Shown: positions 7,435 to 26,078, counted from the first letter of the stretch. The stretch is DNA of 32,000 nucleotides from Planctopirus limnophila DSM 3776 (GCF_000092105.1 NC_014148.1:2190001-2222000), one strand, 5' to 3'. The notes: generated by a model from the sequence alone, not told the origin. Numbers and translations: made by a program.

Positions 7435-8319
7435 GACAGAATCACCACGTGACTGAAAACTGATCAGAACCTGAGACTCGAATTTCCGGCTCGTCATCAA
7501 CCCGTCGAATGAACATCAGGCCCTATCAAAGCCACTTTGTATCAGTCTTAACGAGGATTCCGCAGGAGTCTCTTCTCGATTGATCGGACAGGTCATCCAT
7601 TTCTCATCATGGAAAGTCCACCGTTCCTGTCCTTAATAGCACACGGCTCACTTCAGTTTAACGATTATGACTGAGATGCCGATTACCAGCCGTTTGACAG
7701 GAGGCCTGACCAGCCGAATTCCAGAACCTGCTTCGTCGAGAATGTTGGGCCATCGCGTCGGCGGTCACGGCGCTCAGATGTCAGGAAAATCAGACCGACA
7801 AGAAAAAAATGCACAATTGACCAGAACAAAGTCTACGGCGGGACTGGAAATCAACATCAAAACGGCCTGTACAAAAGAGTTCTCTCTTGACGATTTCATC
7901 CTCACATGGTTTTAATAAGCAGTGGTTGAACTGTTGTCAGAAGTACCGGCTGGGGTCTGCCGTAAGGCGGATTCGGGAAACTGGCGGCAACATTCTGTCT
8001 GACATCCACGAGCAATTGTGTGTTATCGGGCAGATTTATGGTGTGTTTGGCAATTCTGACGGTGGGGACCGAAGGAATGGCCAGCTTTCTGATTTGCTAC
8101 AAAGTCGCCAGTGTCATTGAGTTTTTGGCGAAAATTGGTCGATAAACCAATGCCCGAACTCTCTGACAAAGGCTTGTGCATCACTTTGCAACTGGATTTG
8201 CAACGTGGTGAACATGTGGCATTTCGAAGTGCCGGAAGGTTTTTTCTGTCTTTGATGGACAAGACTCACGGCGAATCGAGCTGCAGTGGAACAGCCGCTC
8301 GATCCTGAGGGCTGCTACG

Positions 8320-9612
8320 ATGGCAGGCAATAACTTACATACAGACGCTGTCCCACGCATTGTGGTGACCGGGGTGGGTATCGTCTCGCCCATTGGCATT
8401 GGTAAAGAGGCGTTCTGGGACAGCCTCAGCCAGGGAGTATCCGGAATCCAGGCAGATTCCAATATCTCTGGTCATCCATTGGGAGCAAAGGTCAATGAGT
8501 TTGACCCTGTCGCTCATATCTACCAGAAGAAGTTTATTCGCGTCATGCCGCGAGAAGTGCAACTGGGTGTGGCTGCCGCCTCAATGGCGATGAAAGATGC
8601 CGGTCTGGAGCGAGGCGATCTTGATCCTTACCGCATTGGCGTCGAGTTTGGCGCCAGTCATATCTCGACCTCAGCGGAAGATCTGCTCGATGCCGCCCGC
8701 GGCCTGAAAACCGTTGTCGATCCCGAACGATTCGCCAGTCAATTTGGCTCTGCGAACATGGATCAGATTGGCCCGCTGTGGCTGATCAAGCAACTCCCCA
8801 ACATGCCTGCCTGCCATGTCGCGATGGAGCACGATGCCCGCGGCCCTAACAACACAATTACCAGCTCGGAATCGTCTGCGATCCTGGCACTTGCCGAAGC
8901 CGTTCGAACTATCGAACGTGGTGCCGCAGATGTCATGATCGTGGGTGCGTGCAGTTCGCATTTTGACCCAGTCGAATGGACACGAGTTACCACTTACGAG
9001 CAGTTAAGCCAGGAATCCGATCCTGATCGTGCCTGCCGCCCATTCGATTTAAATCGGTCGGGAACGGTCATGGGTGAAGGAGCAGGGGCGTTCATTATTG
9101 AACGATATGAGCACGCCATGGCTCGTGGTGCAACCATCTATGGGGAAGTGCTGGGAGTTGGAGCAGGTTGTGATGGTGCAGGTTTAGAAAATCGCCGCCA
9201 GGGGACAGGTCTGGTGCGAGCGATCGAGCATGCTTTGCGCCGCAGTCAGCTTACTCCGCAGCATCTGGGCCATATCAACGCGCACGGCAAAGGGACCATC
9301 ATTGATGACCTGACAGAAGCCAGGGCCTACCACAGGGTCCTTGGTTCTGTTGCGGAGACGATCCCCGTCACGGCACTAAAGAGTTACTTTGGTCACTTCG
9401 ATGCCGGTGCTGGTGCGGTCGAACTCGTAGGCAGCATTCTCGCATTACGTCATCGGCTGATTCCCCATACGCTCAATTACCGCACTCCCGATCCTGAGTG
9501 CCGACTCAAAATTGTGCGCGGTGAGCCTCGGCGCATGACCAGCGACATCGCCCTCAGTGTCAATCGTACACGCATGGGTCAGAGTGCTGCTGCTGTCATT
9601 CGCGCGATTTAG
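8320..9612 (+). CDS. Beta-ketoacyl-ACP synthase I/II-family protein lacking the catalytic cysteine (430 aa)
   Basis: It has a KAS N-terminus (RIVVTGVGIVSPIGIGKEAFW). Both catalytic His contexts are kept (INAHGKGT; KSYFGHFDAGAGAVE). A gap-free alignment to E. coli FabF around NM.A.H......RGP puts Glu184 (GAA, 8869-8871) where Cys163 sits: ATACTSG versus TSSESSA. Confidence 0.9.
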   Translation: MAGNNLHTDAVPRIVVTGVGIVSPIGIGKEAFWDSLSQGVSGIQADSNISGHPLGAKVNEFDPVAHIYQKKFIRVMPREVQLGVAAASMAMKDAGLERGDLDPYRIGVEFGASHISTSAEDLLDAARGLKTVVDPERFASQFGSANMDQIGPLWLIKQLPNMPACHVAMEHDARGPNNTITSSESSAILALAEAVRTIERGAADVMIVGACSSHFDPVEWTRVTTYEQLSQESDPDRACRPFDLNRSGTVMGEGAGAFIIERYEHAMARGATIYGEVLGVGAGCDGAGLENRRQGTGLVRAIEHALRRSQLTPQHLGHINAHGKGTIIDDLTEARAYHRVLGSVAETIPVTALKSYFGHFDAGAGAVELVGSILALRHRLIPHTLNYRTPDPECRLKIVRGEPRRMTSDIALSVNRTRMGQSAAAVIRAI

Positions 9613-9668
9613 TGCCGAGTACGTGCTGAAGCCAGTACTGAAGTGCCATCTCAAGTTAGAATCGTCAA

Positions 9669-9710
9669 AAAGGCTGCTACCGCTTTGGGCTGTAGCAGCC
9701 TTTCTTGTTT
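9669..9710. terminator. Bidirectional rho-independent terminator between convergent genes
   Basis: A perfect 12-bp stem pairs aaaggctgctac (9669-9680) with gtagcagccttt (9692-9703) around an 11-nt loop. It is flanked by aaaaa on the left and tttcttgttt on the right. It sits between the KS-like stop (9612) and the phoD stop (9725). Confidence 0.7.
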
Positions 9711-9724
9711 AGCAACATATCTGC

Positions 9725-11329
9725 CTACATCTTCTGGGCACCAGCTTTACCGCTCTCCACGGCAAAGCTCGCACGCGTCACCAGTGGTGCACCGGGCTTG
9801 TCGACATACTCAACGACCTGATAGTTCGACGTCCAGCTCTTAGGAGTGATCTCACAACTGACATACCCGCGCTCGGCATTGTAGAACTTCACGAAGGGAT
9901 TCTCATCCTGCACAGTTTGGGCATATTTCAGATTCTGTGATCCATTCCCACTAGAACTGATCGATGTCACGACAAACTCAGTGGCTACAGGCTGGGCGTT
10001 ATCATCCTGACCTGGCGCCAGGTTGTTAACCCAGTTGCTGTGAATATCACCTGTCAGAACAATAGGATTGGAAATCTTCTCGCGATCAAAGAAACCAAGA
10101 ATTCTCTGTCGCTCGACTTCATAACCTGGCCATTGATCCATGCTATAAGCCACCTCTTCCCCGGCTTTGCGATCAACATGCCCCATCATGACCTGCTGAG
10201 CCAGCACATTCCAGATGGACGACGAGGCCTTGAGCCGCTGGGCCAGCCACTTCTCCTGAGCAGGCCCCAGCATGGTTTGCGAAGGCGAGAGCGATTCCGG
10301 GCAGGGAGGTTTGTTTCCATCCCCACAGGGTTGATCCGAACGGTACTGCCTCGTATCCAGCACAGAAAAATCGGCCAATCGGCCAAATGTGGCTGGACGA
10401 TAGAGCGCCATATGCGGCCCCTCAGGCAGGCAGGCGCGAGGCAATGGCATATGCTCGTAATAAGCCCGATAGCTGTTCGCTCTCCGGTCGAGAAACTTGG
10501 CAGGATCGACATCTTTCTGCTCGGAAATGTATCCCGCGCAATTGTTATCGAATTCATGATCATCCCAGGTCACAATCCATGGGCAAAGTGCGTGAGCTGC
10601 CTGAAGAAATTCATCGCTTTTGTACTGCGCATGCCGCTGTCGATAGTCTTCGATCGATTCGATCTCATTACCTCGATGCTTTCGCACCAGGCGATCTTTC
10701 CCCTTGTACTCATAAATGTAATCCCCCAGATGAAAGATCAGATCGAGATCCTCTTTGGACATGTGGTCATACGCAGTGAAAAGGCCCTGCTCAAAGTGCT
10801 GGCACGAAGCAAATGCCATTCGCAACCGGTTGTTGAGAGCCTCAGGCCTGGGCATGGTTCGAAAACGGCCCGTGCGACTGGCACCACCTGAGGCAAGAAA
10901 TCGATAGAAGTACCATCGATCAGGGTCTAACCCGCTCACTTCGACATGCACCGCATGCGCCATATCGGGAGTAGCGACCGCAGTTCCCTTCTGCATGATC
11001 TTCGAGAACTTCTCGTCGTGAGAGACCTCCCATTGGACGGGAATCGCCACAGGTTCGACAGGCTCATCACTCAGCGGATCGGGAAGAATACGTGTCCAGA
11101 GCACAGCACCAGTCGGTTGAGGATCACCCGCAGCCACACCCAATCCAAAAGGATTCGGCCCCAGCCGATAGTTACGATTGAGAACAGCCCCCTCTGTCCA
11201 TGTCGATAATGTCGGCCACAGAACTGCACCAAATCCAGCAGCCATGATCTGTCGCCGAGACCACTTCAACGGGATCTGACCTTGACGAATTTCTCGCGAT
11301 AAGGACTGCGGGGGGTTATCGATTGGCAC
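9725..11329 (-). CDS. phoD: PhoD-family alkaline phosphatase/phosphodiesterase, Tat-exported (534 aa, GTG start)
   Basis: A twin-arginine signal (WSRRQIMAAGFGAVLW) is present. The PhoD N-domain block GVAAGDPQPTGAVLWTRI and metallophosphatase blocks (FHLGDYIYEY, WDDHEFDNN, LTGDIHSNW) are also present. Confidence 0.9.
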   Translation of the reverse strand: MPIDNPPQSLSREIRQGQIPLKWSRRQIMAAGFGAVLWPTLSTWTEGAVLNRNYRLGPNPFGLGVAAGDPQPTGAVLWTRILPDPLSDEPVEPVAIPVQWEVSHDEKFSKIMQKGTAVATPDMAHAVHVEVSGLDPDRWYFYRFLASGGASRTGRFRTMPRPEALNNRLRMAFASCQHFEQGLFTAYDHMSKEDLDLIFHLGDYIYEYKGKDRLVRKHRGNEIESIEDYRQRHAQYKSDEFLQAAHALCPWIVTWDDHEFDNNCAGYISEQKDVDPAKFLDRRANSYRAYYEHMPLPRACLPEGPHMALYRPATFGRLADFSVLDTRQYRSDQPCGDGNKPPCPESLSPSQTMLGPAQEKWLAQRLKASSSIWNVLAQQVMMGHVDRKAGEEVAYSMDQWPGYEVERQRILGFFDREKISNPIVLTGDIHSNWVNNLAPGQDDNAQPVATEFVVTSISSSGNGSQNLKYAQTVQDENPFVKFYNAERGYVSCEITPKSWTSNYQVVEYVDKPGAPLVTRASFAVESGKAGAQKM

Positions 11330-11721
11330 TGGATCAACTCCTTGTTGTTAATTCTGGATATGACGCATCGTCACATGAGCGTCCTGGCTCAGAAGAAATC
11401 CTCACTCTTATTCGAATCAAAAATTATCAATAAACGGTGAAGATTTAACTGGGAATCAATTTTTTATCGTAAACTGCTTATTCGGAGAAAAACTTCCGAC
11501 AGTTCATTTGGTCAATTACCACAAGAGACAAGACCGCAGTTTGATGAACGCCTGCCACCATGATGTCTTAAATCATTTCTGATATGGCTCGACTTACGCA
11601 GTTGACAACAAACCTGTTGGCTTTGTGATTGGGAGCAGGCACAAAAAGCGTTACTCTGAATTTGAAGTCCAGAGAATCGAGGCATAGTCAATCGTCTACT
11701 CTTTGCAGATCTGAAAGCGTT

Positions 11722-12429
11722 ATGGAGCTGAACCAAATCATCGAGTGGGCCGGGAACTCCATCTACGCCTTTCAGGCATTGGGAGCATTAGTCGGTGGGA
11801 CATTGTGTGTGATTCTGTTTCGCCAACTGGCAACCAAACGTTTTCGTACACACAAAGAGGCGGAAGAGTTTCGCGAAGAATGCTCTCAATGGATTCGCGA
11901 CCACAATTGGGAAGCCTTGATTGCCCGTTGCGATGCATCACCCTGGTGGACGAAAGTTTCTCCTCAACTGCTGGGGTTAGCTGCCAGCCGAACGGACATC
12001 CCTCCCGCCGAGATCCGAAATTTTGCGCTCGATCAGTTCGAGCGGGAAGTTCAGGCCGAACTTGAGCACAAAGTCATGTGGGTCAACACGGTCATCAAAT
12101 CAGCCCCGATGCTGGGTCTGTTAGGGACGGTTGCGGGGATGATTGCAGCCTTCGGCAAAATTGCTTCCATGCAGAAATCCGGGACCGATCCTTCCATGCT
12201 GGCTAACGATATCAGCCTGGCACTCATCACCACCGCCGTGGGTCTCGTGATAGCCGTTCCACTGATGATTGCGATTTCTGCGATTCTGATTCGTGTTCGC
12301 AAATTGCAGTTTGAAGTTGATCAGATTCTCACTCCACTCCTCGATCAGCTGGCAGAGGCCCGGTTTGCTGAAACCCAGCAAAAAGTACGTACATCATCCA
12401 GCGAACGGCAGGTGGAACGTACCCGATGA
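11722..12429 (+). CDS. exbB: MotA/TolQ/ExbB-family proton-channel protein (235 aa)
   Basis: Three predicted TM segments are present, with the family motif MLGLLGTVAGMIAAF followed by ISLALITTAVGLVIAVP. The longest ORF starts at 11629. I prefer the ATG at 11722 (MELNQIIEWAG...) because the upstream 31 codons are non-hydrophobic and not family-like. Confidence 0.9.
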   Translation: MELNQIIEWAGNSIYAFQALGALVGGTLCVILFRQLATKRFRTHKEAEEFREECSQWIRDHNWEALIARCDASPWWTKVSPQLLGLAASRTDIPPAEIRNFALDQFEREVQAELEHKVMWVNTVIKSAPMLGLLGTVAGMIAAFGKIASMQKSGTDPSMLANDISLALITTAVGLVIAVPLMIAISAILIRVRKLQFEVDQILTPLLDQLAEARFAETQQKVRTSSSERQVERTR

Positions 12430-12947
12430 ATCCGCCAACTCAACACGAACATTCCCTTTCGAACAAATTGGAAAGCGCAACGGGCAAATTGTTCGATGCC
12501 CAGCCACCAGCCCGGGCCGAACGAGTTCGTCGAAAATCGAACAACACGGCTCTGAACAGCGTCGATCTCGACATCACACCCATGATCGATTGTGTCTTTC
12601 TGCTGCTGATCTTCTTTATGGTCTCGTCCACAATGCAGGGAACACCTGATCTCGACGTCCCCTTTGCAATTCACACGCAAGGCGTCGACAGCCGGCAGTC
12701 GACCGTACTGATTCTCAGGCCAGGCAGAAACCCGGGTGATCGCGCACTGATTACTCTTGAAGACTCCGGCCAGCCGATCTCTTTTGCAGAAATTGGTCAA
12801 CGGGTGACAGACGCTGTGCGAAACGGCCAGCGAAATGTCGTCGTCAAGGCCGAGGGGGACGTGGCCCACGGCGATGTCAGGGATGCCATGCAGGCTGCGG
12901 CAAAAGTCCAGGGCACCAGCGTGTTTGCCGGTGTACGGGAGAAGTAG
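12426..12947 (+). CDS. exbD: ExbD/TolR-family protein (173 aa)
   Basis: The TM motif DITPMIDCVFLLLIFFMV retains the conserved TM Asp (D55, GAT 12588-12590, equivalent to E. coli ExbD D25). The periplasmic domain has GDVAHGDVRDAMQAA. ATGA overlaps the exbB stop at 12426-12429. Confidence 0.9.
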   Translation: MNPPTQHEHSLSNKLESATGKLFDAQPPARAERVRRKSNNTALNSVDLDITPMIDCVFLLLIFFMVSSTMQGTPDLDVPFAIHTQGVDSRQSTVLILRPGRNPGDRALITLEDSGQPISFAEIGQRVTDAVRNGQRNVVVKAEGDVAHGDVRDAMQAAAKVQGTSVFAGVREK

Positions 12948-12950
12948 CTC

Positions 12951-13703
12951 ATGCCCATACGTTTCCGCTGTAATGCCTGCGGGCATCGGTTATCAATCAC
13001 CTCGAGTAAACAGGGGCAAACGACCACCTGTCCGATCTGCCAGAGTGAGACCACCATCCCCTTCGAAGTCGATGATCTTAACAATCATACTCACGAGGAT
13101 ATCGAAAACAATCAGCCTCAAGCAGTCGATACTGAACCCTCTGCAGAACCTCCGGAAACTGCTCAGCGTCTTCCCGTGGCTGCTAAACCTCGATCGATCA
13201 AAAGGATTCCCATCGATCTGGAGGAGATGGATCTTACGCCTATGGTCGATGTCACCTTTCTGCTGCTCATTTTCTTCATGATCACGGCCTCCTTCAGCCT
13301 GCAGAAGACAATTCCATTCCCCACGCCTGACCCACAAAAATCGGGTGGCAAAGCCTCTTTGCAATCCCTCGATGATCTGCTCAACCAATCGATTCTTGTG
13401 GAAGTCAGTCGAGAAGGAAAAATCACGATTGATCGTCGACCGATTGAGACGGACTCTCGAGTACTCGAAGATGAGTTCCGCCTGCAGATGACTCGTGACA
13501 ATAAACAGGAACTGGTTCTGACTGCGGACCCTGCGGCTAAGCACCGCCTGGTGATCACAATCCTCGATGCTGCCAATGCTGCAGGATTGCAGAAAATTCG
13601 GATCGTCACAGCCGGCAGTCAAGTACCACTCAAAGTCACTCGAATTTCGCCAGCTACGAATCTCACCCGGACGCTCACTCAAACCATGACGGAGGGAGTG
13701 TGA
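12951..13703 (+). CDS. ExbD/TolR-family protein with an N-terminal CxxC...CxxC zinc ribbon (250 aa)
   Basis: The N-terminus is MPIRFRCNACGHRLSITSSKQGQTTTCPICQSETTIPF, with Cys at positions 7, 10, 27 and 30. An acidic/Pro linker follows. Next is the ExbD TM motif DLTPMVDVTFLLLIFFMI, with the TM Asp retained (D100, GAT 13248-13250). The periplasmic ExbD domain carries HRLVITILDAANAAG. The gene starts 3 nt after the previous stop. Confidence 0.88.
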   Translation: MPIRFRCNACGHRLSITSSKQGQTTTCPICQSETTIPFEVDDLNNHTHEDIENNQPQAVDTEPSAEPPETAQRLPVAAKPRSIKRIPIDLEEMDLTPMVDVTFLLLIFFMITASFSLQKTIPFPTPDPQKSGGKASLQSLDDLLNQSILVEVSREGKITIDRRPIETDSRVLEDEFRLQMTRDNKQELVLTADPAAKHRLVITILDAANAAGLQKIRIVTAGSQVPLKVTRISPATNLTRTLTQTMTEGV

Positions 13704-16700
13704 TGCCGGAGCTTGTTGTCGTCTGCCCGGGAACTGCCAATCGTGTTTTGGAACTCACCAAAACTCACCCTGTCATGATTGGCTCGCTGGAATTCAATGA
13801 AATTGTGGTACCTGGAGACAACATTCCAGCAGTTGTCTGCCGGGTCAGCTGGAATGGCTCGGCATTCGAAGTCACTGTCGCCGGTGCTCCTTCAGTGAGT
13901 GTGAATGGAGCCGATGTCGCTCGGTCGGAGCTCTCTGCCGGAGATGTGATCTCGATTGGCAAAGTGGCCATTCGTTATCAGGATTTGCAGCAGCAGGGGA
14001 TGGAAAAATCAGTGCCCGCTCCTGAGGCTCAAACACTTCCGAGAAAGTCACCTCGGAAAGGGCAGCCTGAACAACCAGTCGTCATTATTGAAGAAGAATC
14101 TTCGACCAGCCTGAGCGATCTTCCGGCACTTCCCACACGAGATAACGCCGTCGCCAGTCGACTGGCAGCACGCGAGTCTGCTGGATCGCCCGGAGGCAGT
14201 TTTTCTGAAAAACCTGATCTTCGTCAAAGAGGGCTCAATAAGGCCCCCGCACTTGCCCGCCCGGGAGAAGAAGACCTCGTCAGATCGCCGTTTGTTCTGG
14301 GAATGGCCATCTCTGTCGGGCTACTTATCGTGGCAGGACTGGTCACGACTTTCCTGATTCAACAAAGATCTCTCGAGCGGGAATTCGGCCTCGCTGAACT
14401 CGATTTCAAAGAAGGTCGTTTCTCTCAGGCTTACGAAGGATTCCAGAAGTTCTCCACAAGTCACCCCCGGGCCAAACGCTCGAAAGAAGCCAGACGCTAC
14501 GCCTGGAAAGCAGCCATTGAACGCGAACTCCTCGGAGTCACTCCTGATTTCACTCAGGCCATGTCCCATTTGCAGAAATGGATTGTCGATGACCGCGATG
14601 CAGAAGATTTCAGCTCGATCAGACCAGATTTACTTCGTGCAGCCGAAAGAATTGCAAATGGTAGCGCCATAGCCTCGGCTGCCAATGCCAGTGCCGAACT
14701 TCTGAACATTTCCGATGACGCCACCCGACTGATCGAACGCTACAACGACGACCGGACATCTCTGACAGCTTCACTCGAACGCCTGGAACAGTTGCGAAAA
14801 GCTGCCAATCGCGCTCTGGTTCGAAAAAACCGTCTTGATACCGCCACCAGTGAGATCCAGTCCGCCTTAAAGGCAGATCAGGCTTTGAAAGCACTCGCCA
14901 TTCATCGGCAACTGATGGATCATCACCCGGATCTCAAGAAAAACCCGGAGTTGAACGAACTCCTTGCAGAAGCCATTCGACTCGAAACAAAACAGGTCGT
15001 TGAACGTCCCGCCGAGTCACTTCCTCAACCTGACAAACCGCGTGAAGCTGTCAGCGTCATGCCCTACTTCCGGCAGCGCAGCCGCAGCGAAGATCCCACC
15101 AGCAGTCTGATCCTCCCACTGCGCTTGCAGGATTCATTAGTCGCCATTCAACCCGAAACTGGAAAGCTTCTGTGGCAATATCCTCTGGGAAAATCCAATT
15201 CTCCATTTGCGATCCCCTTATCAGGGAATGCTGAGCGCTGGCTGGCATGGAGTGAGCGTGACCAGGGTCTGATCTTATTTGACTCAGAAAATGGGCGGCC
15301 TTCATGGCTCTGCCCGACAGGTCAACTCGCTCCTGGGATTCCTGCCCAAGCGGAGAACTCGCTTTTCGTGAGCCTAGCCTCAGGAGAGGTCTGGCGGCTC
15401 GATAAGGAAACGGGACGCGTTACTGCCGCCTTAAAGTTTCCGCAGAGACTCGTGACGCAACCCGTATTGTTACGAGACGCGACTCATCTCGTCGCGGGCG
15501 GGGAACAGTCACTTCTTTACACCTTCAGCCGCAATCCTCTTCAGATCGTGGCAGCAACATACTTAGGTCATGACAAACACACGTTGACAGTCCCTCAACT
15601 GGCAACGGGAGATTTACTCCTCGTGGGAGAGAATGACCAACTCGACTCAGCCAGATTGCACGTACTGTCCACCGGGCAACCCCTACAGCCCCTGGCAATC
15701 AGGCAAACTTTGGAATTGCCCGGTCTGCTCATGGGAGCTGGCAAAATTCGTGGATCAACGCTTGTATTGCCCCTCGTCGGCGAACGACTGGCTCTCTTCA
15801 ACGTCACCGATCAATCCGGCATGACTCCTCTGACGGAAGTGGATGGCTATCCTTTACAATCGAAATACAACGGGCCGATTGAACTCTGGTTCTCACCACA
15901 AGATGAAATCTGGATGTACGGTTCCCGGTTGAAACGATTCTCCACTCGTTCCGATGGGCTCAGCCTGCTCTCTGGAGATTCCATCACAGGGTGGGCTGCC
16001 GGTCCCATCACCAGCTTTGATCGACAGGTCATGATCCCCCGCAGAGCTTCGTGGACGACCGGAACAACCACCAGCACGGTCAATCTGGCTGGTCAGCCCG
16101 GAAACTGGAAAATGATCTCCGGTGGAAAGTTACTCGGGTCCGCCACCGCCCCAGATCGATTGCTCACTGCCAGTGAAGCCGGCATTCTTTCCCAATGGAC
16201 AACGATTTCTCATAACGAGTCTTCCGTCATGGAATCGCAGGTCGCGATTGACTTGCCACCTCTGGAAAACTGGCAATTGTTCGCCACTCCCTGGAATGGC
16301 AAACTCGTGGTCACAGCCGCAAGAGCTGACTCTGCTGGATCTTCAACCCGCTACTGGATCTATGAAGGGACATCGACACTTCCACCACCGCGATCCATCG
16401 AAGGTCATCTCGAGTTAGCCCCATTGTCGCTCGATGGCGGAATTGTTCTTTTCCAACCGGGAACTGCCACCTGGCTCAATCCCCAAACGGGCCAGAAATC
16501 GCAAGTCGTCCAGCCACAGTTGGCTTCCAGCGGTGATTCAACCTTGCAGAGAAGCTGGAAGTGCGCGGCCGTATTACCAGATTCCATCGTGGTCGCAACA
16601 AAAGATGGTGAACTCTGGAAACTGGCCATGCTCCAGGGTCAATTGACACGCATCGCGACAATCAAGTTGCCTGACGCAGATGTTGCTCAAATGGCGAGCT

Positions 16701-17254
16701 GCGGCCGCTATATCGCAGTTCTCTTGCGCTCGGGAGAAGCCGATCACTCAGGTCAGCTTCATTTGTATCTGGCGGAAACACTCGACCCGCGCGGAACAAT
16801 TGAACTTTCAGATTCTGAATCTGACAACGAAATTCATGCCCTCATCGGTGATGAACAATCGCTGATCGTGTCGACCAGTCAAGGAGTCGAACACTTTGAT
16901 TTGAGCGGCAGTTTTAACTCAGCGATGGCCAACCAGACGACACCGCATCGCTGGAAGATCCCTTCAAAACAGTCACATCGATTACTGGCACACTTTCAAG
17001 GTACAACCATCTGGATTGTCACTGCACCCGATCAGGTTCAGCAGATAGATCGTCGCTCAGGAAAAGTCTTGCACACCGTTCAGACTCAAATCCAGATCGA
17101 TTCGCTCTTTATCGCCTTTGGAAAACTCTTTGCGGCCTCCAGCGATCTGGCCATCGAGTTGATTGCCAACCCTGCCAATACTTTCATTGAAGAGCAGCAG
17201 ACACAGAACACGATTGATCCTGAAAATCGACCTGCTCAAGGGATCGAGCCATGA
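13703..17254 (+). CDS. Bitopic giant protein of about 1183 aa: cytoplasmic FHA-like domain, Pro/Glu-rich linker, TM helix, helical region, PQQ/BamB-like beta-propeller
   Basis: An FHA-like scaffold spans residues about 20-95 (IGS...VVCRVSW...VSVNGADV...LSAGDVISIGKVAIRY). One TM helix, PFVLGMAISVGLLIVAGLVTTFLI, maps to nt 14288-14359. Repeated propeller-type strands occur (LVAIQPETGKLLWQYPLG, LILFDSENGRPSWLCP, VWRLDKETGRVTAALKF). The ATG at 13703 overlaps the preceding TGA (TGATG). A GTG at 13700 is an alternative start. Confidence 0.85.
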   Translation: MPELVVVCPGTANRVLELTKTHPVMIGSLEFNEIVVPGDNIPAVVCRVSWNGSAFEVTVAGAPSVSVNGADVARSELSAGDVISIGKVAIRYQDLQQQGMEKSVPAPEAQTLPRKSPRKGQPEQPVVIIEEESSTSLSDLPALPTRDNAVASRLAARESAGSPGGSFSEKPDLRQRGLNKAPALARPGEEDLVRSPFVLGMAISVGLLIVAGLVTTFLIQQRSLEREFGLAELDFKEGRFSQAYEGFQKFSTSHPRAKRSKEARRYAWKAAIERELLGVTPDFTQAMSHLQKWIVDDRDAEDFSSIRPDLLRAAERIANGSAIASAANASAELLNISDDATRLIERYNDDRTSLTASLERLEQLRKAANRALVRKNRLDTATSEIQSALKADQALKALAIHRQLMDHHPDLKKNPELNELLAEAIRLETKQVVERPAESLPQPDKPREAVSVMPYFRQRSRSEDPTSSLILPLRLQDSLVAIQPETGKLLWQYPLGKSNSPFAIPLSGNAERWLAWSERDQGLILFDSENGRPSWLCPTGQLAPGIPAQAENSLFVSLASGEVWRLDKETGRVTAALKFPQRLVTQPVLLRDATHLVAGGEQSLLYTFSRNPLQIVAATYLGHDKHTLTVPQLATGDLLLVGENDQLDSARLHVLSTGQPLQPLAIRQTLELPGLLMGAGKIRGSTLVLPLVGERLALFNVTDQSGMTPLTEVDGYPLQSKYNGPIELWFSPQDEIWMYGSRLKRFSTRSDGLSLLSGDSITGWAAGPITSFDRQVMIPRRASWTTGTTTSTVNLAGQPGNWKMISGGKLLGSATAPDRLLTASEAGILSQWTTISHNESSVMESQVAIDLPPLENWQLFATPWNGKLVVTAARADSAGSSTRYWIYEGTSTLPPPRSIEGHLELAPLSLDGGIVLFQPGTATWLNPQTGQKSQVVQPQLASSGDSTLQRSWKCAAVLPDSIVVATKDGELWKLAMLQGQLTRIATIKLPDADVAQMASCGRYIAVLLRSGEADHSGQLHLYLAETLDPRGTIELSDSESDNEIHALIGDEQSLIVSTSQGVEHFDLSGSFNSAMANQTTPHRWKIPSKQSHRLLAHFQGTTIWIVTAPDQVQQIDRRSGKVLHTVQTQIQIDSLFIAFGKLFAASSDLAIELIANPANTFIEEQQTQNTIDPENRPAQGIEP

Positions 17255-19857
17255 AGCAGCGACTAACACTTCATCGCTGGTTATTAGTCATGACTGTGGC
17301 TGTATGGGGCTTCACCCTGAGCGACGCACTTTTCGCTCAGGAAGTCACCCCCGATACCAACGCACAACTCACTGAGACTACACAGACTTCAAGCAATCAG
17401 ACTTCAAGCAATCAGAATCCCACCACCAGCAACGCAGCCGTCGATGAAGCTGCCGAGGAGGCAGAAAAACTCCCGACGTTATCAACACTGGCTTTACCTG
17501 ATGCCAAGACATTGCTCAAAGGACGGCCTGTCGACTGGATCATTCTCAAAACTGACGAAGTGATTGTGGTTGAACCACTCGAACCTCGACCCGGCGCTCT
17601 CGAAAAGCAGATCAACGATCAACTGGAGGCCATGCGAAAGCCATTGCCACCCCAGAAAAATGCCATGGAACTCGAACAGTCGCGCCGCCGCGAATTGGGA
17701 ACACTCAAGATCACACTGGCCGATCCTGAGGATCCTCAACCGGAATACCGAATCGATCTCAAACTCATCCGGGAAGTTCTATACCATGAGGATTTGCTGC
17801 TTCGCCGGGTTGATGAGTTGCTGAAATCGGGCGAGACGGATGTGGCTTATGAACTGCTTTCCGAAATCTGCGAGATCGCTCCCGGCTGGCGAGGGACTCA
17901 GGAAAGACAAATCGATCTTTTGCGAACTGAAGCTCGTCTGGCTTTCAAGGCAGGAAACTCATCGCGTGCCAGAATCCGACTTCTCAAACTTTTGGAACTC
18001 AACGCGGCCAATCGTAACGACATCGCAGATCTTGTCACACTCACCCGCAAGGAGATCGAAGCTGGGGTGGCTGCCGGCAATATGCGTCTCGCGCGAGAGA
18101 TCCTTCAAAGCCTCCCCAGTTCGATTCGCCAGAGCCCGGCTTCGGAATCGCTTACCACGTTGGTTCCCTCAAGTCCTCGACCAACAACAACAATTCCTGC
18201 AAAGGCCAGCCATTGGGAACCGTGGCAAGAACTGATCAACTGGCGTCAAACGACCACTGATCTGCCACTGCTCAGAAAACTTTGGCGGGAACAGTCTCAA
18301 GGGAACGCGCTGTTGCGGATTGTCCGCACAAACGATGGGCGAAAAGACCTTCTCGAACTGACGGACGTTCGACTCTTTCAACAAGTCCCGCTGGTTTTCA
18401 ATGAGACGAAAAGACCTGTGTCCAGTGGCACAAGTCATAATACAATATGGTCATCGCCGATTCTTCAGAGCTGGGAACCGACAGATCTGGGTCGGCAGGA
18501 ACGACTCACTTTGAATCGGTTCGCTATCGAGGCTGGATGGAATGCCGATCGACTGGCCCAATGGCTGGGACAATCAACAGCCGATTCCTCCACTTTGCTG
18601 TCGCAATACATCGATGGCTACAAGGTCCTCAACGCTACCGAACTCGTGATCGATTTGCGGAGTTCACCACGCGCTTTCGAGGCCATTTTTTCTGACGCAC
18701 CACCCCTGAATTCAACACCGCACGGTCTGCCAGATGATCAATCTCAAAACCAACTCGCCGCCTGGCGACAGGTAGAATACGAAGCGGCGAGTTCATCGGA
18801 GCCGAAGTTATCGGGAGAGAAGCGATCGATCCAGCAGGTCGTCATCCTCCAGAGGAATCACGCCAGACCTGCCATCAGAAGCGTCTCGACTTCGTCCATT
18901 CACTGGATTCATCAGACAACACTCGATTCCGAGGCTGATGGTGTACGGGAATTACTGCGGGGTGAAGCCGATTTTTGCCCGGTGATCGATCCACAGGATG
19001 CCGTTCGATTCCAGAAAGACAGTCGATTTTTCACCATTCCTTATGCCACTCCATCGATCATCACTCTTCGATTTTCACCTCAATCACGGTTGGGGCAATG
19101 CGAGCCTTTAAGGCAAGCGATTAACCTTTGCCTGGATCGCAAAAAAATGGCAGAGGTGGTGGCAGGAACCGATGGAAAAAATTTCGTTCAACCAGCCACA
19201 CAATTTTCTGGCCAAGCGGCTGCTCGATCCAATTCATTACTTGGTGAACAACTCTCCGAGTTCGATCCACTGACGGCAGCCACATTTCTGCAACTTGCCA
19301 AAGGAAAGTGCCCGGAATTCAATCGCCCTCTCCGCTTCGAAAGACCAGCATCGGATGTCTTTCGTCGCTGTCAGGAGATGTTAACGAACACCTTGAATCG
19401 ACTGGGAATTGCTACGGAAACTGTTCCTGCAGATTCCGGTCTGGCTGATCTTCGCTGGGAACGCCAGGTCATTTCTAATCCAATCGACAACTGGATCAAC
19501 CTGATCCGGCCCGATGCTCCCCAACATTCCAACACGCGCTCCCCATGGAATCTCATCCACAGTACGACAAAGAATGGAAAAAGTGATGCTTCAGCGTTAG
19601 CGGAATTGGATTTTTCTGGTTCGAACTTTCGTTATCTTGCAGCCGAATTACAGCGTACCACGAATCCGGAGATTGCGACGAGACAGGCCTTGAAGCTCGA
19701 GTATGATCTCCGACTTTCCGCCTGGGTATTGCCCGTCCTCAGGATCACAGATCATGCCGTCTGTTCCAGAAAGCTCTCTCGCTTACCAGCGGAATTGAGT
19801 ACGCCTTTTGATGGGATTGAACAGTGGCTGATGAATCTGGAGGAAGAATCCAGATGA
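17251..19857 (+). CDS. Exported 868-aa protein of unknown function (signal peptide, Ser/Thr/Asn-rich linker, helical TPR-like region, weakly SBP-family-5-like C-terminal half)
   Basis: An N-terminal signal peptide is present (MKQRLTLHRWLLVMTVAVWGFTLSDALFAQE). ATGA overlaps the upstream stop at 17251-17254. A helical repeat stretch runs about LLRRVDELLKSGETDVAYELL...MRLAREILQSL. The C-terminal blocks LRQAINLCLDRKKMAEVV and FDPLTAATFLQLAKG resemble peptide/nickel solute-binding proteins. That resemblance is by eye only and low certainty. Confidence 0.8.
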   Translation: MKQRLTLHRWLLVMTVAVWGFTLSDALFAQEVTPDTNAQLTETTQTSSNQTSSNQNPTTSNAAVDEAAEEAEKLPTLSTLALPDAKTLLKGRPVDWIILKTDEVIVVEPLEPRPGALEKQINDQLEAMRKPLPPQKNAMELEQSRRRELGTLKITLADPEDPQPEYRIDLKLIREVLYHEDLLLRRVDELLKSGETDVAYELLSEICEIAPGWRGTQERQIDLLRTEARLAFKAGNSSRARIRLLKLLELNAANRNDIADLVTLTRKEIEAGVAAGNMRLAREILQSLPSSIRQSPASESLTTLVPSSPRPTTTIPAKASHWEPWQELINWRQTTTDLPLLRKLWREQSQGNALLRIVRTNDGRKDLLELTDVRLFQQVPLVFNETKRPVSSGTSHNTIWSSPILQSWEPTDLGRQERLTLNRFAIEAGWNADRLAQWLGQSTADSSTLLSQYIDGYKVLNATELVIDLRSSPRAFEAIFSDAPPLNSTPHGLPDDQSQNQLAAWRQVEYEAASSSEPKLSGEKRSIQQVVILQRNHARPAIRSVSTSSIHWIHQTTLDSEADGVRELLRGEADFCPVIDPQDAVRFQKDSRFFTIPYATPSIITLRFSPQSRLGQCEPLRQAINLCLDRKKMAEVVAGTDGKNFVQPATQFSGQAAARSNSLLGEQLSEFDPLTAATFLQLAKGKCPEFNRPLRFERPASDVFRRCQEMLTNTLNRLGIATETVPADSGLADLRWERQVISNPIDNWINLIRPDAPQHSNTRSPWNLIHSTTKNGKSDASALAELDFSGSNFRYLAAELQRTTNPEIATRQALKLEYDLRLSAWVLPVLRITDHAVCSRKLSRLPAELSTPFDGIEQWLMNLEEESR
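17384..17416 (+). repeat. Perfect 15-bp in-frame tandem duplication (2.2 copies)
   Basis: The unit agacttcaagcaatc occurs at 17384-17398 and again at 17399-17413, followed by aga. It encodes TSSNQ-TSSNQ in the linker just after the signal peptide of the 868-aa protein. Confidence 0.9.
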
Positions 19858-21482
19858 ACGTGTTCACCTATCGCGCAGGGATCATTGTTTTTGGCATTTG
19901 CCTGTGGTTATTGGCAAATGGTTTGAGCTTCACTCCGGAAGCAGGTCACAAAGTCATCGGGGCTGAAACAATCGGGGCAGAAGTGAACCCGGCTGATTCC
20001 CACAGCCTCGTGTCTTTGCCCGCCGCTGAAACGGCCATCGCCTGGGAATTGTCGCCTTATCGAGTGGCTTGGGAGATTCGTCATGACAATCATCAATTCG
20101 AAAACATGCCCCCACTTCCTCAGCAAGCAGAGTTCGGGTCACTGGTTTTAAGTACCAGTAAACGAATCAGTTCGGGCCTTTGGCAATCGACTCTTCGTCA
20201 CAAAAAAAGTGGTCAACCCGTTGCTGCTGCCGATGTCGAAATTGTCGTCCTTTGGAAAGTGGAGGGGGGTGGTTATGCGGCGATCGTCACGTTGGCTCAG
20301 CCTGCCTACAACCGCTTGGTGGAATTCTCCATCTCCCGACAACCTGATCTTGATGCACTGGCGAAAGCAGTCGTTCGCTCCTGCCTGAAGCAGTTTGCTC
20401 CCGAGTTGCGACTTGCGACGGGCTCATCCGGCCAATTGATGGCCACACATCGCGGCGAACTGCTGTTTCCAGAAGTGGCCACACGCTGGTCTCCTCGAAA
20501 CCTCCACCTGGCCATTCCGTGGATTTGCTATCTCGATGAACAGGGCAAGACCATCCGCCACGAACCGGTCGAGTGGACGGTTCTCGAATTACCAGCCGCT
20601 GGTGCGCCGATCCTGCATTCCGGAAGCCGAATCAATCTGGCAGGCCGTGGACGTTCGCAGATTGAACTCAAAGGATTACTGATACCACCCAATGACCAGT
20701 CAACTAAACTTTCCATACTCACTCTGGGAAGTCGGCAACCTCAACCGGGCCTCGATATCTTCGTTTCTCACGAGCCATTGGCAGCAGCCACTCGCGTGCA
20801 GTTGATTCAGAGTTTACAACCCTCCAATCAACAAAAAACTCCCACCACGACAGAAAACACCACCGCAGCGGCTGATTCGAAAAGTTTAGCAGCTTCGCCG
20901 CCACCCCGGCCATTCCTGGTCACCACGAACCTGCGCGGTGAGGTGCTCATCACTTCTCAATCTGAGCAGGATCAGTCTCGCCTATTGTGGCTGAATGTGT
21001 TCGGTGGCGATCAACTTCTGGCTCGCGTGCCGATGATTGCCGGAGCGGAAAGACAAGAGCAGTTGTTTCTTCCGGATGACGGGCCGCGACGTGAAGCGGA
21101 AGCTCAGCTCCAAAGTCTTGCCGATGAAATCACCCTTATTGTCGCCAGGAGGACTTCACTTCTGGCGCGCTTAAGAAATGCCTCCCGGCAAAGAAACTGG
21201 CAACTGGTGAGTGATCTGCGAAAACAAATCGGCCAACTCCCTACCGATCAAAATGTCGAAACCATGATCTCTGCGATTCAATCGACCAGTTCTGAAGCCG
21301 CCAAAAAAATCTCCAGCCGATCCGCAGCAGAACGTATCCGCAGACAATCTTCGGCGTTGCTCAAACTCGCGCAGCAGCACCTGGGCACTGAGGCACTCAA
21401 AGTTCTCGATGAAGAAATCGCTCAGTTGCGGGCATTGGACGACGCTGCTCCTCAAACTCCTCCCAAAGTCGATACTCCCTGA
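19854..21482 (+). CDS. Membrane-anchored or exported 542-aa protein of unknown function with a C-terminal coiled-coil-like region
   Basis: The ATG at 19854 overlaps the upstream TGA (ATGA, 19854-19857). It gives MNVFTYRAGIIVFGICLWLLANGLSF, a hydrophobic anchor or signal. The last 120 aa or so are heptad-like and charged (REAEAQLQSLADEITLIVARR...LKVLDEEIAQLRALDD). I recognise no family motif. Confidence 0.75.
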   Translation: MNVFTYRAGIIVFGICLWLLANGLSFTPEAGHKVIGAETIGAEVNPADSHSLVSLPAAETAIAWELSPYRVAWEIRHDNHQFENMPPLPQQAEFGSLVLSTSKRISSGLWQSTLRHKKSGQPVAAADVEIVVLWKVEGGGYAAIVTLAQPAYNRLVEFSISRQPDLDALAKAVVRSCLKQFAPELRLATGSSGQLMATHRGELLFPEVATRWSPRNLHLAIPWICYLDEQGKTIRHEPVEWTVLELPAAGAPILHSGSRINLAGRGRSQIELKGLLIPPNDQSTKLSILTLGSRQPQPGLDIFVSHEPLAAATRVQLIQSLQPSNQQKTPTTTENTTAAADSKSLAASPPPRPFLVTTNLRGEVLITSQSEQDQSRLLWLNVFGGDQLLARVPMIAGAERQEQLFLPDDGPRREAEAQLQSLADEITLIVARRTSLLARLRNASRQRNWQLVSDLRKQIGQLPTDQNVETMISAIQSTSSEAAKKISSRSAAERIRRQSSALLKLAQQHLGTEALKVLDEEIAQLRALDDAAPQTPPKVDTP

Positions 21483-23837: not shown

Positions 23838-25742
23838 TTAGAGAGATTCGAGATATCGAAGTAACTGCTGCAGTTCTTCGGGAGAAAGCTTCTCGCCAGC
23901 CACCTTTTCCGGGGCATGATACTTTTCGAGGGCGTCGCGCAGACTGCGAGAACGTCCATCGTGCAGAAATCGTCGTCTGAGATTCAGCCCCAGCAAACTC
24001 GGCGGATTGAATCGGAAGTCACTGTCATTTCGACTTTTCAGCCCGATCTCAAACGTATCCTCATGCACCATTTGCGGCCCCTGGTGGCAGTTATCGCAGG
24101 CGCCTTTCCCAAAGAAGATCGCCTTACCGGCATGCCAGTCGGGATCATCCTGCGGTTGTGACCGCTCCAGAGGATTTCCCTGCCACGATGCAGGACGGAG
24201 TGTTTCAAGGTAGGCCACAAGGGCTTTCTGCTGCTCTTGAGTCGATGACTTTTCACTTTGCATGGTTTCTTCGATAGAACGCTTCATGGCGTTCTCCAGA
24301 TCTCGTTGCCAGCCATGCCATGTCCATGGGCCTGTTTCAGCCACGTGGTACAACGTGGGTGTCAGCTTCGCTGCTCCATAGCCCCGATCATTCTGAGTAT
24401 CGAAGAGTTGTCCAGCGGTGTGACCATCGGGGTGGCAGGAATGACAACTGAACCACTGATGCAGGCTGTGCTTCGCATCATAGAAGATTTCTTCACCCTG
24501 TCGGGCTAAAGACTTCTCATGGGGATTGGTACCGACAGCGATCGACTGCTCAATTTTTCCATGTTCGAGATCAACGATTTCCACGGCTTCTTTGAGACCA
24601 TTGGCGACCGCAATCCGACGATCATCAAGGAACTCGAAATCCAAAGGACGGCCTGCCAGCGAAATCCGGCGGTACCTCGTCTTGTCACCAATCAGTTCTG
24701 GACGCACAAAGTCGCCTGGGTCCCCAGGCATCCAAGGCAATTCTTTGCGTTTGACCAGAATGATCTCATGCGAGCCGCTGGCAGTGATGACGATCCATTC
24801 ACCGTTAGGCGAAACGCGCGTCGCGTAAGCATCGCCCACACCTTTTTGAAATTCATCGAGACCAAGTTGTTCCTGCTCGCCCAGTTCTCCTTGTGGAATC
24901 GGCATCCTCACCAGACGGTTATCAATCACCCAACCCCGTTCAATATTGCTGAAGTTGACCGGAAACCCTCGATTGATGGCACAACTGACGAGGAGTGAGC
25001 CTGTTTCAGGTTCAAACGCCATCGGGCCCAGATTGAAACCATCTGTGTAAACTTTGTGCTCACCGGCGACTTTGAGTGTGGCGAGATCGAAGACTGTCAC
25101 TCGGGCCGGCACCTGTGCAGCCACTGCGAGCCACTTTCGGTCGGGAGAGATAACAACTTGCTGTGGCAGACCCCCGGCTGGCAAACGCCGCAACACCTCG
25201 AATGAATCCAGATCAACAACAGCGACATCATCGCTCCCCGAAACAGCCACATAAGCCAAAGGGGGACGAGATTCACTGTCAATGGCCAGCCCACAAGGTT
25301 CCAACCCGACGGGGAGTTGACGAAGGAATTCAAGCTTTCCACCGACGACACCCATCTCGACGAGTTGGCCTCTCCCTCGCAAAGTCGCATAGGCCTTATG
25401 ATCGTTCAGCCACTGAACATCCCACGGGACGCCTGCCAGAGAGATCTCAGAGAGTTTCTCACCGCTTGAGAAATCCACCAGAGCCACAGAGCCCCCGGTA
25501 TTGGCGACAAGTCCCAGCTTCTTACCCGCCGACAAGGCCAGACTGCGGGGATTGCGATAGCCACCTTCGAGATCAGCGGTTGAAGTCCTGGTCTCCGGGC
25601 GAGACGGACCAGCAGATGTCAGGTTCTCCTCGGCGGCCTGGGCAACCGAGTCGCAGAATGAAGAGGAGGTGCAGAACCAGAACGCCATCGTTAACAGCAA
25701 ACCAACCGCCACGCCTGCACTGCTATAAATCATCCATCGCAT
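23838..25742 (-). CDS. Beta-propeller (YVTN-like repeats) fused to a di-haem cytochrome c peroxidase (CCP/MauG family) domain, 634 aa
   Basis: There are two CxxCH haem motifs: CHSCH (nt 24432-24446) and CDNCH (nt 24084-24098). CCP blocks are LTPTLYHVAETGPWTWHGW and FNPPSLLGLNLRRRFLHDGRSRSLRDAL. The N-terminal half has repeated V..D......(V/L)..(I/L)..G strands. The ATG at 25742 (MRWMIYSSAGVAVGLLLTMAFWF) gives a signal anchor. The longest ORF reaches 25925. Confidence 0.88.
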   Translation of the reverse strand: MRWMIYSSAGVAVGLLLTMAFWFCTSSSFCDSVAQAAEENLTSAGPSRPETRTSTADLEGGYRNPRSLALSAGKKLGLVANTGGSVALVDFSSGEKLSEISLAGVPWDVQWLNDHKAYATLRGRGQLVEMGVVGGKLEFLRQLPVGLEPCGLAIDSESRPPLAYVAVSGSDDVAVVDLDSFEVLRRLPAGGLPQQVVISPDRKWLAVAAQVPARVTVFDLATLKVAGEHKVYTDGFNLGPMAFEPETGSLLVSCAINRGFPVNFSNIERGWVIDNRLVRMPIPQGELGEQEQLGLDEFQKGVGDAYATRVSPNGEWIVITASGSHEIILVKRKELPWMPGDPGDFVRPELIGDKTRYRRISLAGRPLDFEFLDDRRIAVANGLKEAVEIVDLEHGKIEQSIAVGTNPHEKSLARQGEEIFYDAKHSLHQWFSCHSCHPDGHTAGQLFDTQNDRGYGAAKLTPTLYHVAETGPWTWHGWQRDLENAMKRSIEETMQSEKSSTQEQQKALVAYLETLRPASWQGNPLERSQPQDDPDWHAGKAIFFGKGACDNCHQGPQMVHEDTFEIGLKSRNDSDFRFNPPSLLGLNLRRRFLHDGRSRSLRDALEKYHAPEKVAGEKLSPEELQQLLRYLESL

Positions 25743-26078
25743 GGAATACGCTTTCCGTAAAGTCAGGCTGAGTCGGGCCAGACAAAGGCTGCCGATTGAC
25801 AAGATTTTCTCGGCTAATAAATCAATATTACCAGTACAACAGAATCTTAGATGGATCAATGTGATTGATGACCTGGTTTTCTGAAAAACCGGGATTTCAT
25901 CAGGATCGAGTAACCTCTCAGCCAAAACATGCGAAATTGCGAAATCCAGTATTCAACGCGGAATATGAAGTGAAAATCGAAGCCAAGTGACAGGATATGA
26001 ATCATGTCCCAAAGCTCATCGGAATGAAGTACGATCAGACCCTGGGGCGATTTTGATTTCAGGCTTTGGAGCAGCTTT

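Follow-up and report, generated by a model that had tools for sequence, protein, structure and literature searches.

A TolQ/ExbB-type motor operon with FHA-propeller and solute-binding-fold partners in Planctopirus limnophila, a candidate for an undescribed machine of the planctomycete envelope

What does a TolQ/ExbB-type proton motor drive when the place normally held by TonB or TolA is occupied by other large envelope proteins? The question is raised by Plim_1696-Plim_1701 (here g1-g6), six same-strand genes of the freshwater bacterium Planctopirus limnophila DSM 3776 at positions 11722-21482 of a 32,000-nucleotide stretch of its genome (NC_014148.1:2190001-2222000; the window, whose numbering is used below). 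To our knowledge, motors of the TolQR/ExbBD type are the sole route by which diderm bacteria bring inner-membrane energy to the periplasm or outer membrane, and we know of them as understood so far only with TonB, TolA or the Glt proteins. An earlier inspection of the same DNA (the sequence-only reading) had described a TonB-less motor translationally coupled to three large uncharacterised proteins. We find that the six genes form a real operon of a Tol/Ton-type proton motor and three large envelope proteins, and the recurrence of the block in distant planctomycetes suggests that it probably encodes one undescribed machine.

All of the junction coordinates given earlier were reproduced from an open reading frame (ORF) listing and by direct reading of the junctions. 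There are ATGA overlaps at 12426-12429 (g1/g2), 17251-17254 (g4/g5) and 19854-19857 (g5/g6), a 3-nt gap at 12948-12950 between g2 and g3 (TAG-CTC-ATG), and a GTGATG overlap at 13700-13705 between g3 and g4; the spacing is equal in P. hydrillae (locus L005). The gene models of 235, 250, 1183, 868 and 542 residues are exact matches to GenBank ADG67526, ADG67528, ADG67529, ADG67530 and ADG67531. Exact look-up gives the locus tags Plim_1696 (ExbB), Plim_1698 (the ExbD with a zinc ribbon, ZnR), Plim_1699 (1183 residues) and Plim_1701 (542 residues), and Plim_1697 (ExbD) and Plim_1700 (868 residues) were assigned from gene order and product names in the table of a study using transposon-directed sequencing of insertion sites (TraDIS). 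A consensus scan found no sigma-70 site in the 392-bp gap upstream of g1, which is presumed to hold the promoter, and no internal promoter or terminator signal above chance within the block, which ends 75 bp before aroC.

The first three genes encode the parts of a proton motor, as had been proposed from one ExbB/TolQ/MotA-type and two ExbD/TolR-type products with a transmembrane (TM) Asp in both of the latter; matches to PF01618 and PF02472 and alignments with solved relatives agree with this. The g1 product has three hydrophobic or TM segments (residues 13-34, 130-148 and 159-195), and its closest solved structures are TolQ (E 1e-9) and then ExbB (E 1e-5). Its pore motifs GLLGTVAGM and ALITTAVGLVIAVP align to GLFGTVWGI and ALIATAIGLFAAIP of TolQ, its ALITTAVGL motif aligns with the solved TolQ/ExbB relatives, and its NCBIfam scores for TolQ and ExbB lie far under the equivalog cut-offs. 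It has the features of the channel subunit of the 5:2 proton motors (ExbB/TolQ/MotA with ExbD/TolR/MotB), and g2 and g3 have those of the axle, namely PF02472 and a protonatable TM Asp. This Asp lies in the single TM helix of g2 (45-72, ITPMID) and in the TM helix of g3 (LTPMVD), with TPMID and TPMVD aligned to the TPFIDV of ExbD, and g3 aligns to the ExbD structure 7ajq_F.

The two ExbD proteins differ clearly from each other, and only g3 bears a zinc ribbon. Its N-terminal cytoplasmic ribbon (C7xxC10...C27xxC30) is followed by an acidic linker and then by the TM helix. Although the matches to Zn_ribbon_8 (E 9e-5) and FmdB-type CxxC_CxxC (E 7e-5) both fall below cut-off, the CxxC...CxxC pattern is kept in the ExbD2 homologues of loci L004, L021, L031 and L032 (26-40% identity), and the ribbon is conserved across the family.

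Conservation of the block was followed in relatives. Genome scans anchored on g4, look-ups of divergent representatives and a metagenome scan anchored on g6 together gave 32 loci, which we scored by tblastn and profile hidden Markov models on six-frame translations. The genes for ExbB, ExbD and ZnR-ExbD lie directly upstream of g4 in Planctopirus, L004, L015, L016, L017/L018, L021, L024, L031 and L032, or some 10 of 12 divergent lineages, whose proteins are 22-45% identical to those of Planctopirus; in L013, where the contig is cut on that side, at least an ExbD gene adjoining g4 is visible. Downstream of g4, g5 and then g6 follow in every motor-bearing locus with a contig long enough. The g6-anchored search gave the same order, with g5 before g6 wherever upstream sequence exists and the full block in L024, and g5-g6 is the tightest pair, always adjacent. 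Motor genes thus adjoin the g4 family down to ~22% identity, with the g5 and g6 families behind them. Synteny of this extent among such divergent sequences is well beyond what descent alone would preserve; it speaks for a functional connection of the motor with its partners and for the earlier view of the six genes as one unit.

In Schlesneria a paralogous block has the order ExbB-ExbD-ZnR-ExbD-g4'-VIT/VWA and lacks g5 and g6. An exported VIT-VWA protein is encoded after the g4-like gene in L001 (9977-16080) and also in L007, L009, L010 and L014, and has a signal peptide and no SHLS TM helix. The ExbB/ExbD genes are missing in L010 between an upstream GH-like gene and g4'.

Most relatives have an additional gene, g0, directly upstream of exbB (or of g4), and an exported HEAT/terpene-cyclase-like protein often precedes it. 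In the g0 product (270-325 residues) a TM helix at the N-terminus is followed by an acidic disordered linker, a Gly-rich stretch and then a conserved C-domain of ~145 residues, in which W, Y, FG-ELG and TW motifs are invariant. This is a TonB-like topology, without detectable similarity to TonB: the g0 family profile found no Pfam, PDB or TonB similarity (no PF03544-related hit at E<=0.1), and hhalign against a manually entered E. coli TonB sequence gave a probability of 0.1%. Among window ORFs of at least 150 residues, domain searches found no TonB_C, TolA, Pal/OmpA, PD40/TolB or TonB-dependent receptor domain, and the earlier statement that no canonical TonB, TolA, TolB or Pal is visible holds for the window. 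The label 'TonB-less' applies to this window only; g0 is present in most relatives and could take the TonB/TolA role there.

The partners are phylum-restricted, as seen in the homologue table of the TraDIS study of P. limnophila (PMC10632474, Supplementary Data 2), whose panels comprise 45 Planctomycetes, 79 PVC (Planctomycetes-Verrucomicrobia-Chlamydiae) genomes and 4655 prokaryotes. Homologues of Plim_1698 are listed in 12 Planctomycetes, 12 PVC and 0 prokaryotes, those of Plim_1699 in 9, 9 and 0, those of Plim_1700 in 7, 7 and 0, and those of Plim_1701 in 3, 3 and 0. All six genes are non-essential in that study, with similar insertion indices of 0.087-0.119. The tags Plim_1696-1701 are not mentioned in the main texts of the literature searched, where we also found no description of the system.

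The g4 product is a bitopic inner-membrane protein, and Pfam, PDB profile searches and an AlphaFold2 (AF2) model agree on the order proposed for it earlier, an FHA-like domain, a TM helix, a helical region and a beta-propeller. The model, built from an alignment of 80 full-length homologues, has a mean predicted local distance difference test score (pLDDT) of 84.1 and a predicted template-modelling score (pTM) of 0.71. The family profile against the PDB matches FHA proteins (GarA/Rv1827, 1e-8), TPR proteins in the helical part (BamD/YfiO/YbgF, 1e-8 to 1e-5) and BamB-type propellers (1e-18), and the best Foldseek matches of the beta part are tandem WD40 proteins (Utp21/Utp12, IFT, DDB1; E ~1e-20). 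Since the FHA domain must be cytoplasmic, the disordered linker is placed in the cytoplasm and the TPR region and double propeller in the periplasm. The family is large, with 1296 cluster representatives at E<=1e-30 in an exhaustive profile search, the best 150 nearly all full-length; a word-indexed protein search returned few homologues, and the family size is taken from the profile search. Two labels were rejected. A BamB assignment, as in database annotation, fails at 27 bits against a cut-off of 285 for TIGR03300 and on the cytoplasmic FHA domain, TM helix and tandem propeller; BamB is an outer-membrane lipoprotein with a single eight-bladed propeller, and the label reflects the propeller repeat type only. 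A planctomycete membrane-coat-like protein has the domain order reversed relative to g4, whose location is periplasmic.

The best Pfam match of the FHA domain in Planctopirus is the YscD-type cytoplasmic domain. A canonical phospho-Thr reader was rejected, as the Ser of the SxxH motif is Cys in 70/80 homologues and the GR Arg is present in 36/80. More strongly conserved than the FHA core is a juxtamembrane motif before the TM helix, R186-P-G-E-x-D-x-x-R-S195-P196 (14258-14290), found as RPGExDxxRSP in 77-80 of 80 homologues (96-100%). FHA-less homologues have (N)VWDSP in its place and keep SPLLLxGGG at the entry to the TM helix, where SP(L/V)xLxGG, including the invariant Ser-Pro, is universal in the family. 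The cytoplasmic head is interchangeable, being FHA in most members, a Ser/Thr kinase in L030, and a helical domain in L031 and L004. The L030 protein (6596-11020, 1474 residues), with an N-terminal Ser/Thr protein kinase replacing the FHA domain, neighbours HEAT-like, g0, g5 and g6 genes in a locus without ExbB/ExbD, and a second kinase gene lies just downstream.

The 868-residue g5 product, earlier called unplaceable, has a recognisable C-terminal part. Its predicted layout is a Sec-type signal peptide (~1-29, LFA|QE), a low-complexity stretch, a conserved N-terminal region with a weak TPR_19 match, and a family-5 solute-binding protein (SBP) fold. The single sequence matches PF00496 with E 1e-7 and 31.9 bits against a cut-off of 32.4, PF00496 is found in all g5 homologues, and the GenBank annotation is likewise solute-binding. 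The family profile matches AapF, NikA, DppA and OppA in the PDB (E 2e-16 to 1e-12) over profile positions 331-815, from which we take the C-terminal ~500 residues to form a complete family-5 fold. A role as the binding protein of an ABC importer was rejected, as neither the window block nor ~15 related loci contain an ABC permease or ATPase gene.

We found no Pfam or NCBIfam family for g6 and no PDB sequence match with its family profile, in keeping with the earlier failure to place it. Its AF2 model is of medium confidence (pLDDT 66, pTM 0.52) and consists of a hydrophobic N-terminus (2-21), disorder to ~67, an alpha/beta domain (69-180), a beta-sandwich (184-305), a disordered segment (324-349), a small beta domain (354-406) and a helical bundle (410-531). 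Foldseek gives weak, local matches to alpha/beta domains of the TolB, CadC, PelC, HPF, CsgG and LpoB type; that to TolB has E 1e-4 but a template-modelling score of 0.16-0.21, on a model of pLDDT 66. The description of g6 as anchored may need correction, as its homologues carry signal-peptidase-type sites (AFA|V or ASA|Q), and the hydrophobic segment may be a cleaved signal peptide instead of an anchor.

Table 1. Coordinates of the operon, its promoter region and the domains of g4 (window numbering), and of g0 in related loci (numbering of each locus)
Feature	Coordinates	Strand	Description	Basis
Presumed promoter region	11330..11721	+	392-bp gap upstream of exbB	Divergent from phoD (PhoD on opposite strand)
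g1, Plim_1696	11722..12429	+	TolQ/ExbB/MotA-type proton channel subunit, 235 aa	PF01618 MotA_ExbB, E 2e-23
g2, Plim_1697	12426..12947	+	ExbD/TolR-type subunit 1, 173 aa	PF02472, E 5e-17; ATGA overlap with g1
g3, Plim_1698	12951..13703	+	ExbD/TolR-type subunit 2, 250 aa	PF02472, E 4e-23
g4, Plim_1699	13703..17254	+	Bitopic inner-membrane protein, 1183 aa	Pfam, PDB profile search, AF2 model
g4 FHA fold	13703-14005	+	Residues 1-101	AF2 model, Pfam, profile
g4 disordered cytoplasmic linker	14006-14287	+	Residues 102-195	AF2 model
g4 TM helix	14294-14368	+	Residues ~198-222	AF2 helix from 198; sole hydrophobic segment 191-221
g4 TPR-like all-helical domain	14420-14992	+	Residues 240-430	AF2 model, profile
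g4 tandem beta-propeller	14999-17167	+	Residues 433-1155 (~720 residues beta)	AF2 model, Foldseek
g5, Plim_1700	17251..19857	+	Exported protein, 868 aa	PF00496, family profile vs PDB
g6, Plim_1701	19854..21482	+	Exported or N-terminally anchored, 542 aa	AF2 model
g0 of relatives	L021 7144-8049; L019 8731-9636; L004 2195-3016		Also in L015-18, L024, L030-32	

From the gene content, predicted folds, synteny and non-essentiality we infer complex formation, force transmission through g4 and an output function. Specifically, we propose that Plim_1696-1701 encode one Planctomycetota-specific inner-membrane and periplasmic complex driven by the proton-motive force (PMF), with g4 as its motor-coupled platform, a reading that we judge to be evenly poised between right and wrong. 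By analogy with AglR5-AglQ-AglS, five ExbB/TolQ-like subunits would surround a heterodimer of the two ExbD/TolR-like subunits, and proton flow via the two TM aspartates would cycle the motor. With its TM helix and its almost invariant juxtamembrane motif, g4 would bind to the outside of the ExbB pentamer, in the position taken by TolA, TonB or GltG, and the work of the motor would pass to the periplasmic platform of g4, made of TPR and double propeller. This platform could hold g5, a probable ligand- or peptidoglycan-peptide-binding module, together with g6. Localisation or regulatory factors would dock on the FHA-like domain of g4 and on the ExbD2 zinc ribbon, in the manner of GltG and GltJ. 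In most relatives the reaching arm would probably be supplied by g0 with its TonB topology. As to the output, we weakly favour a Tol-like, non-essential organisation of the envelope, not a TonB-type gating of an outer-membrane channel, because the motor is TolQ-like, the partners combine TPR, propeller and alpha/beta domains, the genes are non-essential, and the SBP family of g5 includes the murein-peptide binder MppA. E. coli Tol-Pal is likewise non-essential under laboratory conditions.

Several observations weigh against the motor-coupled platform. P. limnophila has further ExbB/ExbD paralogues, none of the loci encodes an outer-membrane component, and the Planctopirus loci have neither g0 nor the HEAT-like protein. 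The TM helix of g4 lacks a conserved His and an SHLS motif, and the presence of the RPGE motif follows the FHA domain and not the motor. The AF2 model shows no long periplasmic spacer, the disordered linker being cytoplasmic, and g4 therefore cannot reach the outer membrane as TolA or TonB does; in this it does not resemble TolA, to which the sequence-only reading had likened part of it. The partner module, moreover, can be encoded apart from the motor: L019/L020 (Lacunimicrobium-like) and L030 contain g0-g4-g5-g6 without motor genes in the locus, and in L025 (4401-8674) g5-g6 stand alone with no g4 or motor within 4 kb upstream. Before the L025 pair come DUF309 and LON-substrate-binding genes, and after it a sulfate permease gene.

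The motor-free loci L019 and L030 also speak for an alternative without force transduction, a signalling or assembly scaffold in which g4-g5-g6 (plus g0) would form a periplasmic sensor or assembly complex reporting to cytoplasmic Ser/Thr phospho-signalling, and the ExbB/ExbD genes would simply be co-transcribed and serve a partner encoded elsewhere, such as a TonB. It draws on the swappable cytoplasmic head of g4 and on PQQ-propeller kinases as a known sensor type (PDB 7eq5 and 7dxn are among the g4 profile hits). SBP folds, too, often act as sensor domains. In about 9 independent lineages, however, g0 and g4 have the motor genes inserted between them, at junctions that overlap or are close to zero, a specialised ZnR-bearing ExbD paralogue co-evolves with the block, and the FHA domain lacks the canonical phospho-Thr contacts (see above); we hold a scaffold of this kind to be improbable.

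A different output was considered in view of work on macromolecule uptake. Boedeker et al. reported that the uptake of green fluorescent protein (GFP) and 10-40 kDa dextran into the planctomycete periplasm, shown in Gemmata, is abolished by carbonyl cyanide m-chlorophenylhydrazone (CCCP), the machinery being unknown there (PMC5394234). Motor and platform could power or organise this CCCP-sensitive import of polymers (dextran, proteins) through the outer membrane and into the enlarged periplasm, with g5 binding the cargo. Such a role would accord with the classical use of ExbBD-type motors in energising import, with the complete family-5 fold predicted for g5 in a family that binds peptides, oligosaccharides and chelates, and with the confinement of g3-g6 homologues to Planctomycetes in the panel of 4655 prokaryotes. 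We think it unlikely nevertheless, as no related locus contains an outer-membrane channel, a pilus or fibre gene or an inner-membrane transporter, Plim_1699 homologues occur in only 9 of the 45 Planctomycetes, and P. limnophila has the other ExbB/ExbD sets already mentioned. Quite improbable, in our judgement, is a bolder version in which the block represents a Planctomycetota-confined class of machine, with a ZnR-bearing heterodimeric axle and with propeller/TPR and SBP-fold partners substituting for the TonB/TolA arm, and is itself the missing energiser of CCCP-sensitive uptake (or of a different envelope process peculiar to planctomycetes, budding for example).

The envelope of Planctomycetes is unusual, and their division does not use FtsZ. 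For PMF-dependent uptake or for FtsZ-less division, a dedicated motor complex offers a concrete and testable candidate, in a host that is genetically tractable and in which all six genes can be disrupted. The block also offers a conserved, phylum-restricted partner set (proteins of the FHA-TM-TPR-double-propeller and SBP-fold types, along with g6 and g0 as novel families), widening the catalogue of couplings of 5:2 motors to outputs at a time when other new partner sets for TolQR/ExbBD-type motors are already being reported.

The remainder of the window encodes MoxR, DUF58, glgC, fliS, fliD, a FabF-like synthase, PhoD, aroC, UPF0047, a propeller-cytochrome c peroxidase, a polytopic membrane protein, a DUF1080-type protein, mnmE and yidC. 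The MoxR-type AAA+ ATPase Plim_1689 (548-1564) and the DUF58/VWA_2 protein Plim_1690 (1635-2534) have TraDIS insertion indices of 0.0039 and 0.012, values like those of genes scored as essential; a MoxR/DUF58 pair does not usually show this. In Schlesneria, too, a DUF58 gene is found 8-10 kb upstream of the paralogous ExbB-ExbD-ExbD-g4'-VIT/VWA loci (L001, L010, L014), which hints at a MoxR-DUF58-VWA connection. FliD (4696-7500, - strand) is unusually long at 934 residues, with an internal repetitive region containing a Flagellin_IN-type motif, and adjoins FliS (3912-4502, - strand); both are non-essential by TraDIS. To the right of the operon, a 695-residue fusion (23838-25925, - strand) joins a YncE-like beta-propeller to a di-haem cytochrome c peroxidase (MauG-type) with extra cytochrome c motifs, and the polytopic protein at 26079-27278 (+ strand; 399 residues) has no Pfam match at E<=0.001.

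How then does the block compare with the known motor systems? With Ton it shares an ExbB/ExbD-family motor with the essential TM Asp. It differs in that the window contains neither TonB_C nor a Pro-rich spacer protein nor a TonB-dependent receptor: PF03544 and related TonB_C models match neither g1-g6 nor the g0 proteins of relatives at E<=0.1, neither a canonical TonB_C nor a TolA-III domain was detected when the 1183-residue protein was checked for them, and no TonB-dependent outer-membrane transporter is present among the window ORFs or in related loci. Membership of Ton was rejected on these grounds, as neither a TonB (SHLS/His TM helix, Pro-rich spacer, TonB_C) nor a cognate receptor was found within the window or the loci.

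The likeness to Tol-Pal lies in a non-essential system with a channel closest to TolQ among solved structures, a propeller, a TPR region with weak similarity to YbgF/CpoB and BamD, and possibly a TolB-N-like alpha/beta domain in g6. Tol-Pal has a TolR homodimer, whereas two different TolR-like subunits are present here; g4 lacks the SHLS TM motif, the helical spacer and TolA-III and has a compact TPR region directly after the TM helix; and its propeller is of the PQQ/BamB type, tandem and fused to an inner-membrane anchor, in contrast to the TolB_N plus six-bladed PD40 arrangement of TolB. The TolQ and TolR equivalogs fall short (TIGR02796, 63.7 against 221 bits; TIGR02801, 35.9 and 56.5 against 127.3), the window proteins give no PF04052, PF07676 or PF00691 (TolB_N, PD40, OmpA-like) hits, and membership of Tol-Pal was rejected on the TolQ/TolR equivalogs, TolA, TolB and Pal together.

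The Agl-Glt gliding and focal-adhesion machinery of Myxococcus xanthus has the same list of modules, and the earlier statement that GltG has the FHA domain and GltJ the zinc ribbon is correct (PMC11761067, PMC11135422). Agl-Glt uses one TolQ-like and two different TolR-like subunits, and AglR5-AglQ-AglS binds the TM helix and adjacent FHA domain of GltG (PMC11761067). The block has the same one-plus-two motor set in g1, g2 and g3, a bitopic inner-membrane partner with a cytoplasmic FHA domain, a periplasmic TPR region, and a CxxC...CxxC ribbon in g3 whose spacing resembles that of GltJ (C5, C8, C28, C31; PMC11135422). The locus could encode a distant relative or analogue of the gliding core that moves or tensions adhesins, a holdfast or fibres, and a weak NCBIfam match of g4 to GltG (E 0.007) points the same way. 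This we consider very unlikely. The GltG model (NF033760) gives g4 14.9 bits, where the cut-off is 650. On its periplasmic side g4 has a TPR region and a tandem propeller, whereas GltG has a disordered spacer and a TonB-C-like domain; the zinc ribbon is fused to ExbD without a GYF domain, whereas GltJ is arranged ZnR-linker-GYF-TM-TonB-C-like; and the SBP-fold protein and g6 are without Glt counterparts. No GltA/B/C/D/E/F/H/K counterpart, barrel, GYF domain or CglB-type vWA adhesin was found in the operon or window, and domain searches of the window found no MglA/MglB nearby. We know of no gliding in Planctopirus. Membership of Agl-Glt was rejected on the GltG, GltJ and Glt outer-membrane features. 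As proposals on function, the three earlier readings (a Tol-Pal analogue, an Agl/Glt-like machine, an energiser of uptake or envelope remodelling) remain hypotheses.

A fourth comparison is with clusters of PVC bacteria surveyed in 2025, in which TM-tethered vWA proteins with an SHLS motif, encoded beside a TPR gene, tolQ-like and two heterologous tolR-like genes, were proposed as force transducers (PMC12204202). FHA-propeller, SBP-fold and g6 proteins are not mentioned there. Our block shares the motor gene set and the use of non-TonB partners, and the Schlesneria ExbB-ExbD-ExbD-g4'-VIT/VWA locus recalls these clusters. The partners differ, being FHA-TM-TPR-propeller, SBP-fold and g6 proteins here, and the operon has no vWA gene, the sole VWA-type gene of the window being that for DUF58, 9 kb upstream. 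We conclude that the block lies outside Ton, Tol-Pal and Agl-Glt, because the defining partner features that were tested are absent from it, and that it appears akin to the motor-plus-transducer systems built on TolQR, ExbBD and AglRQS.

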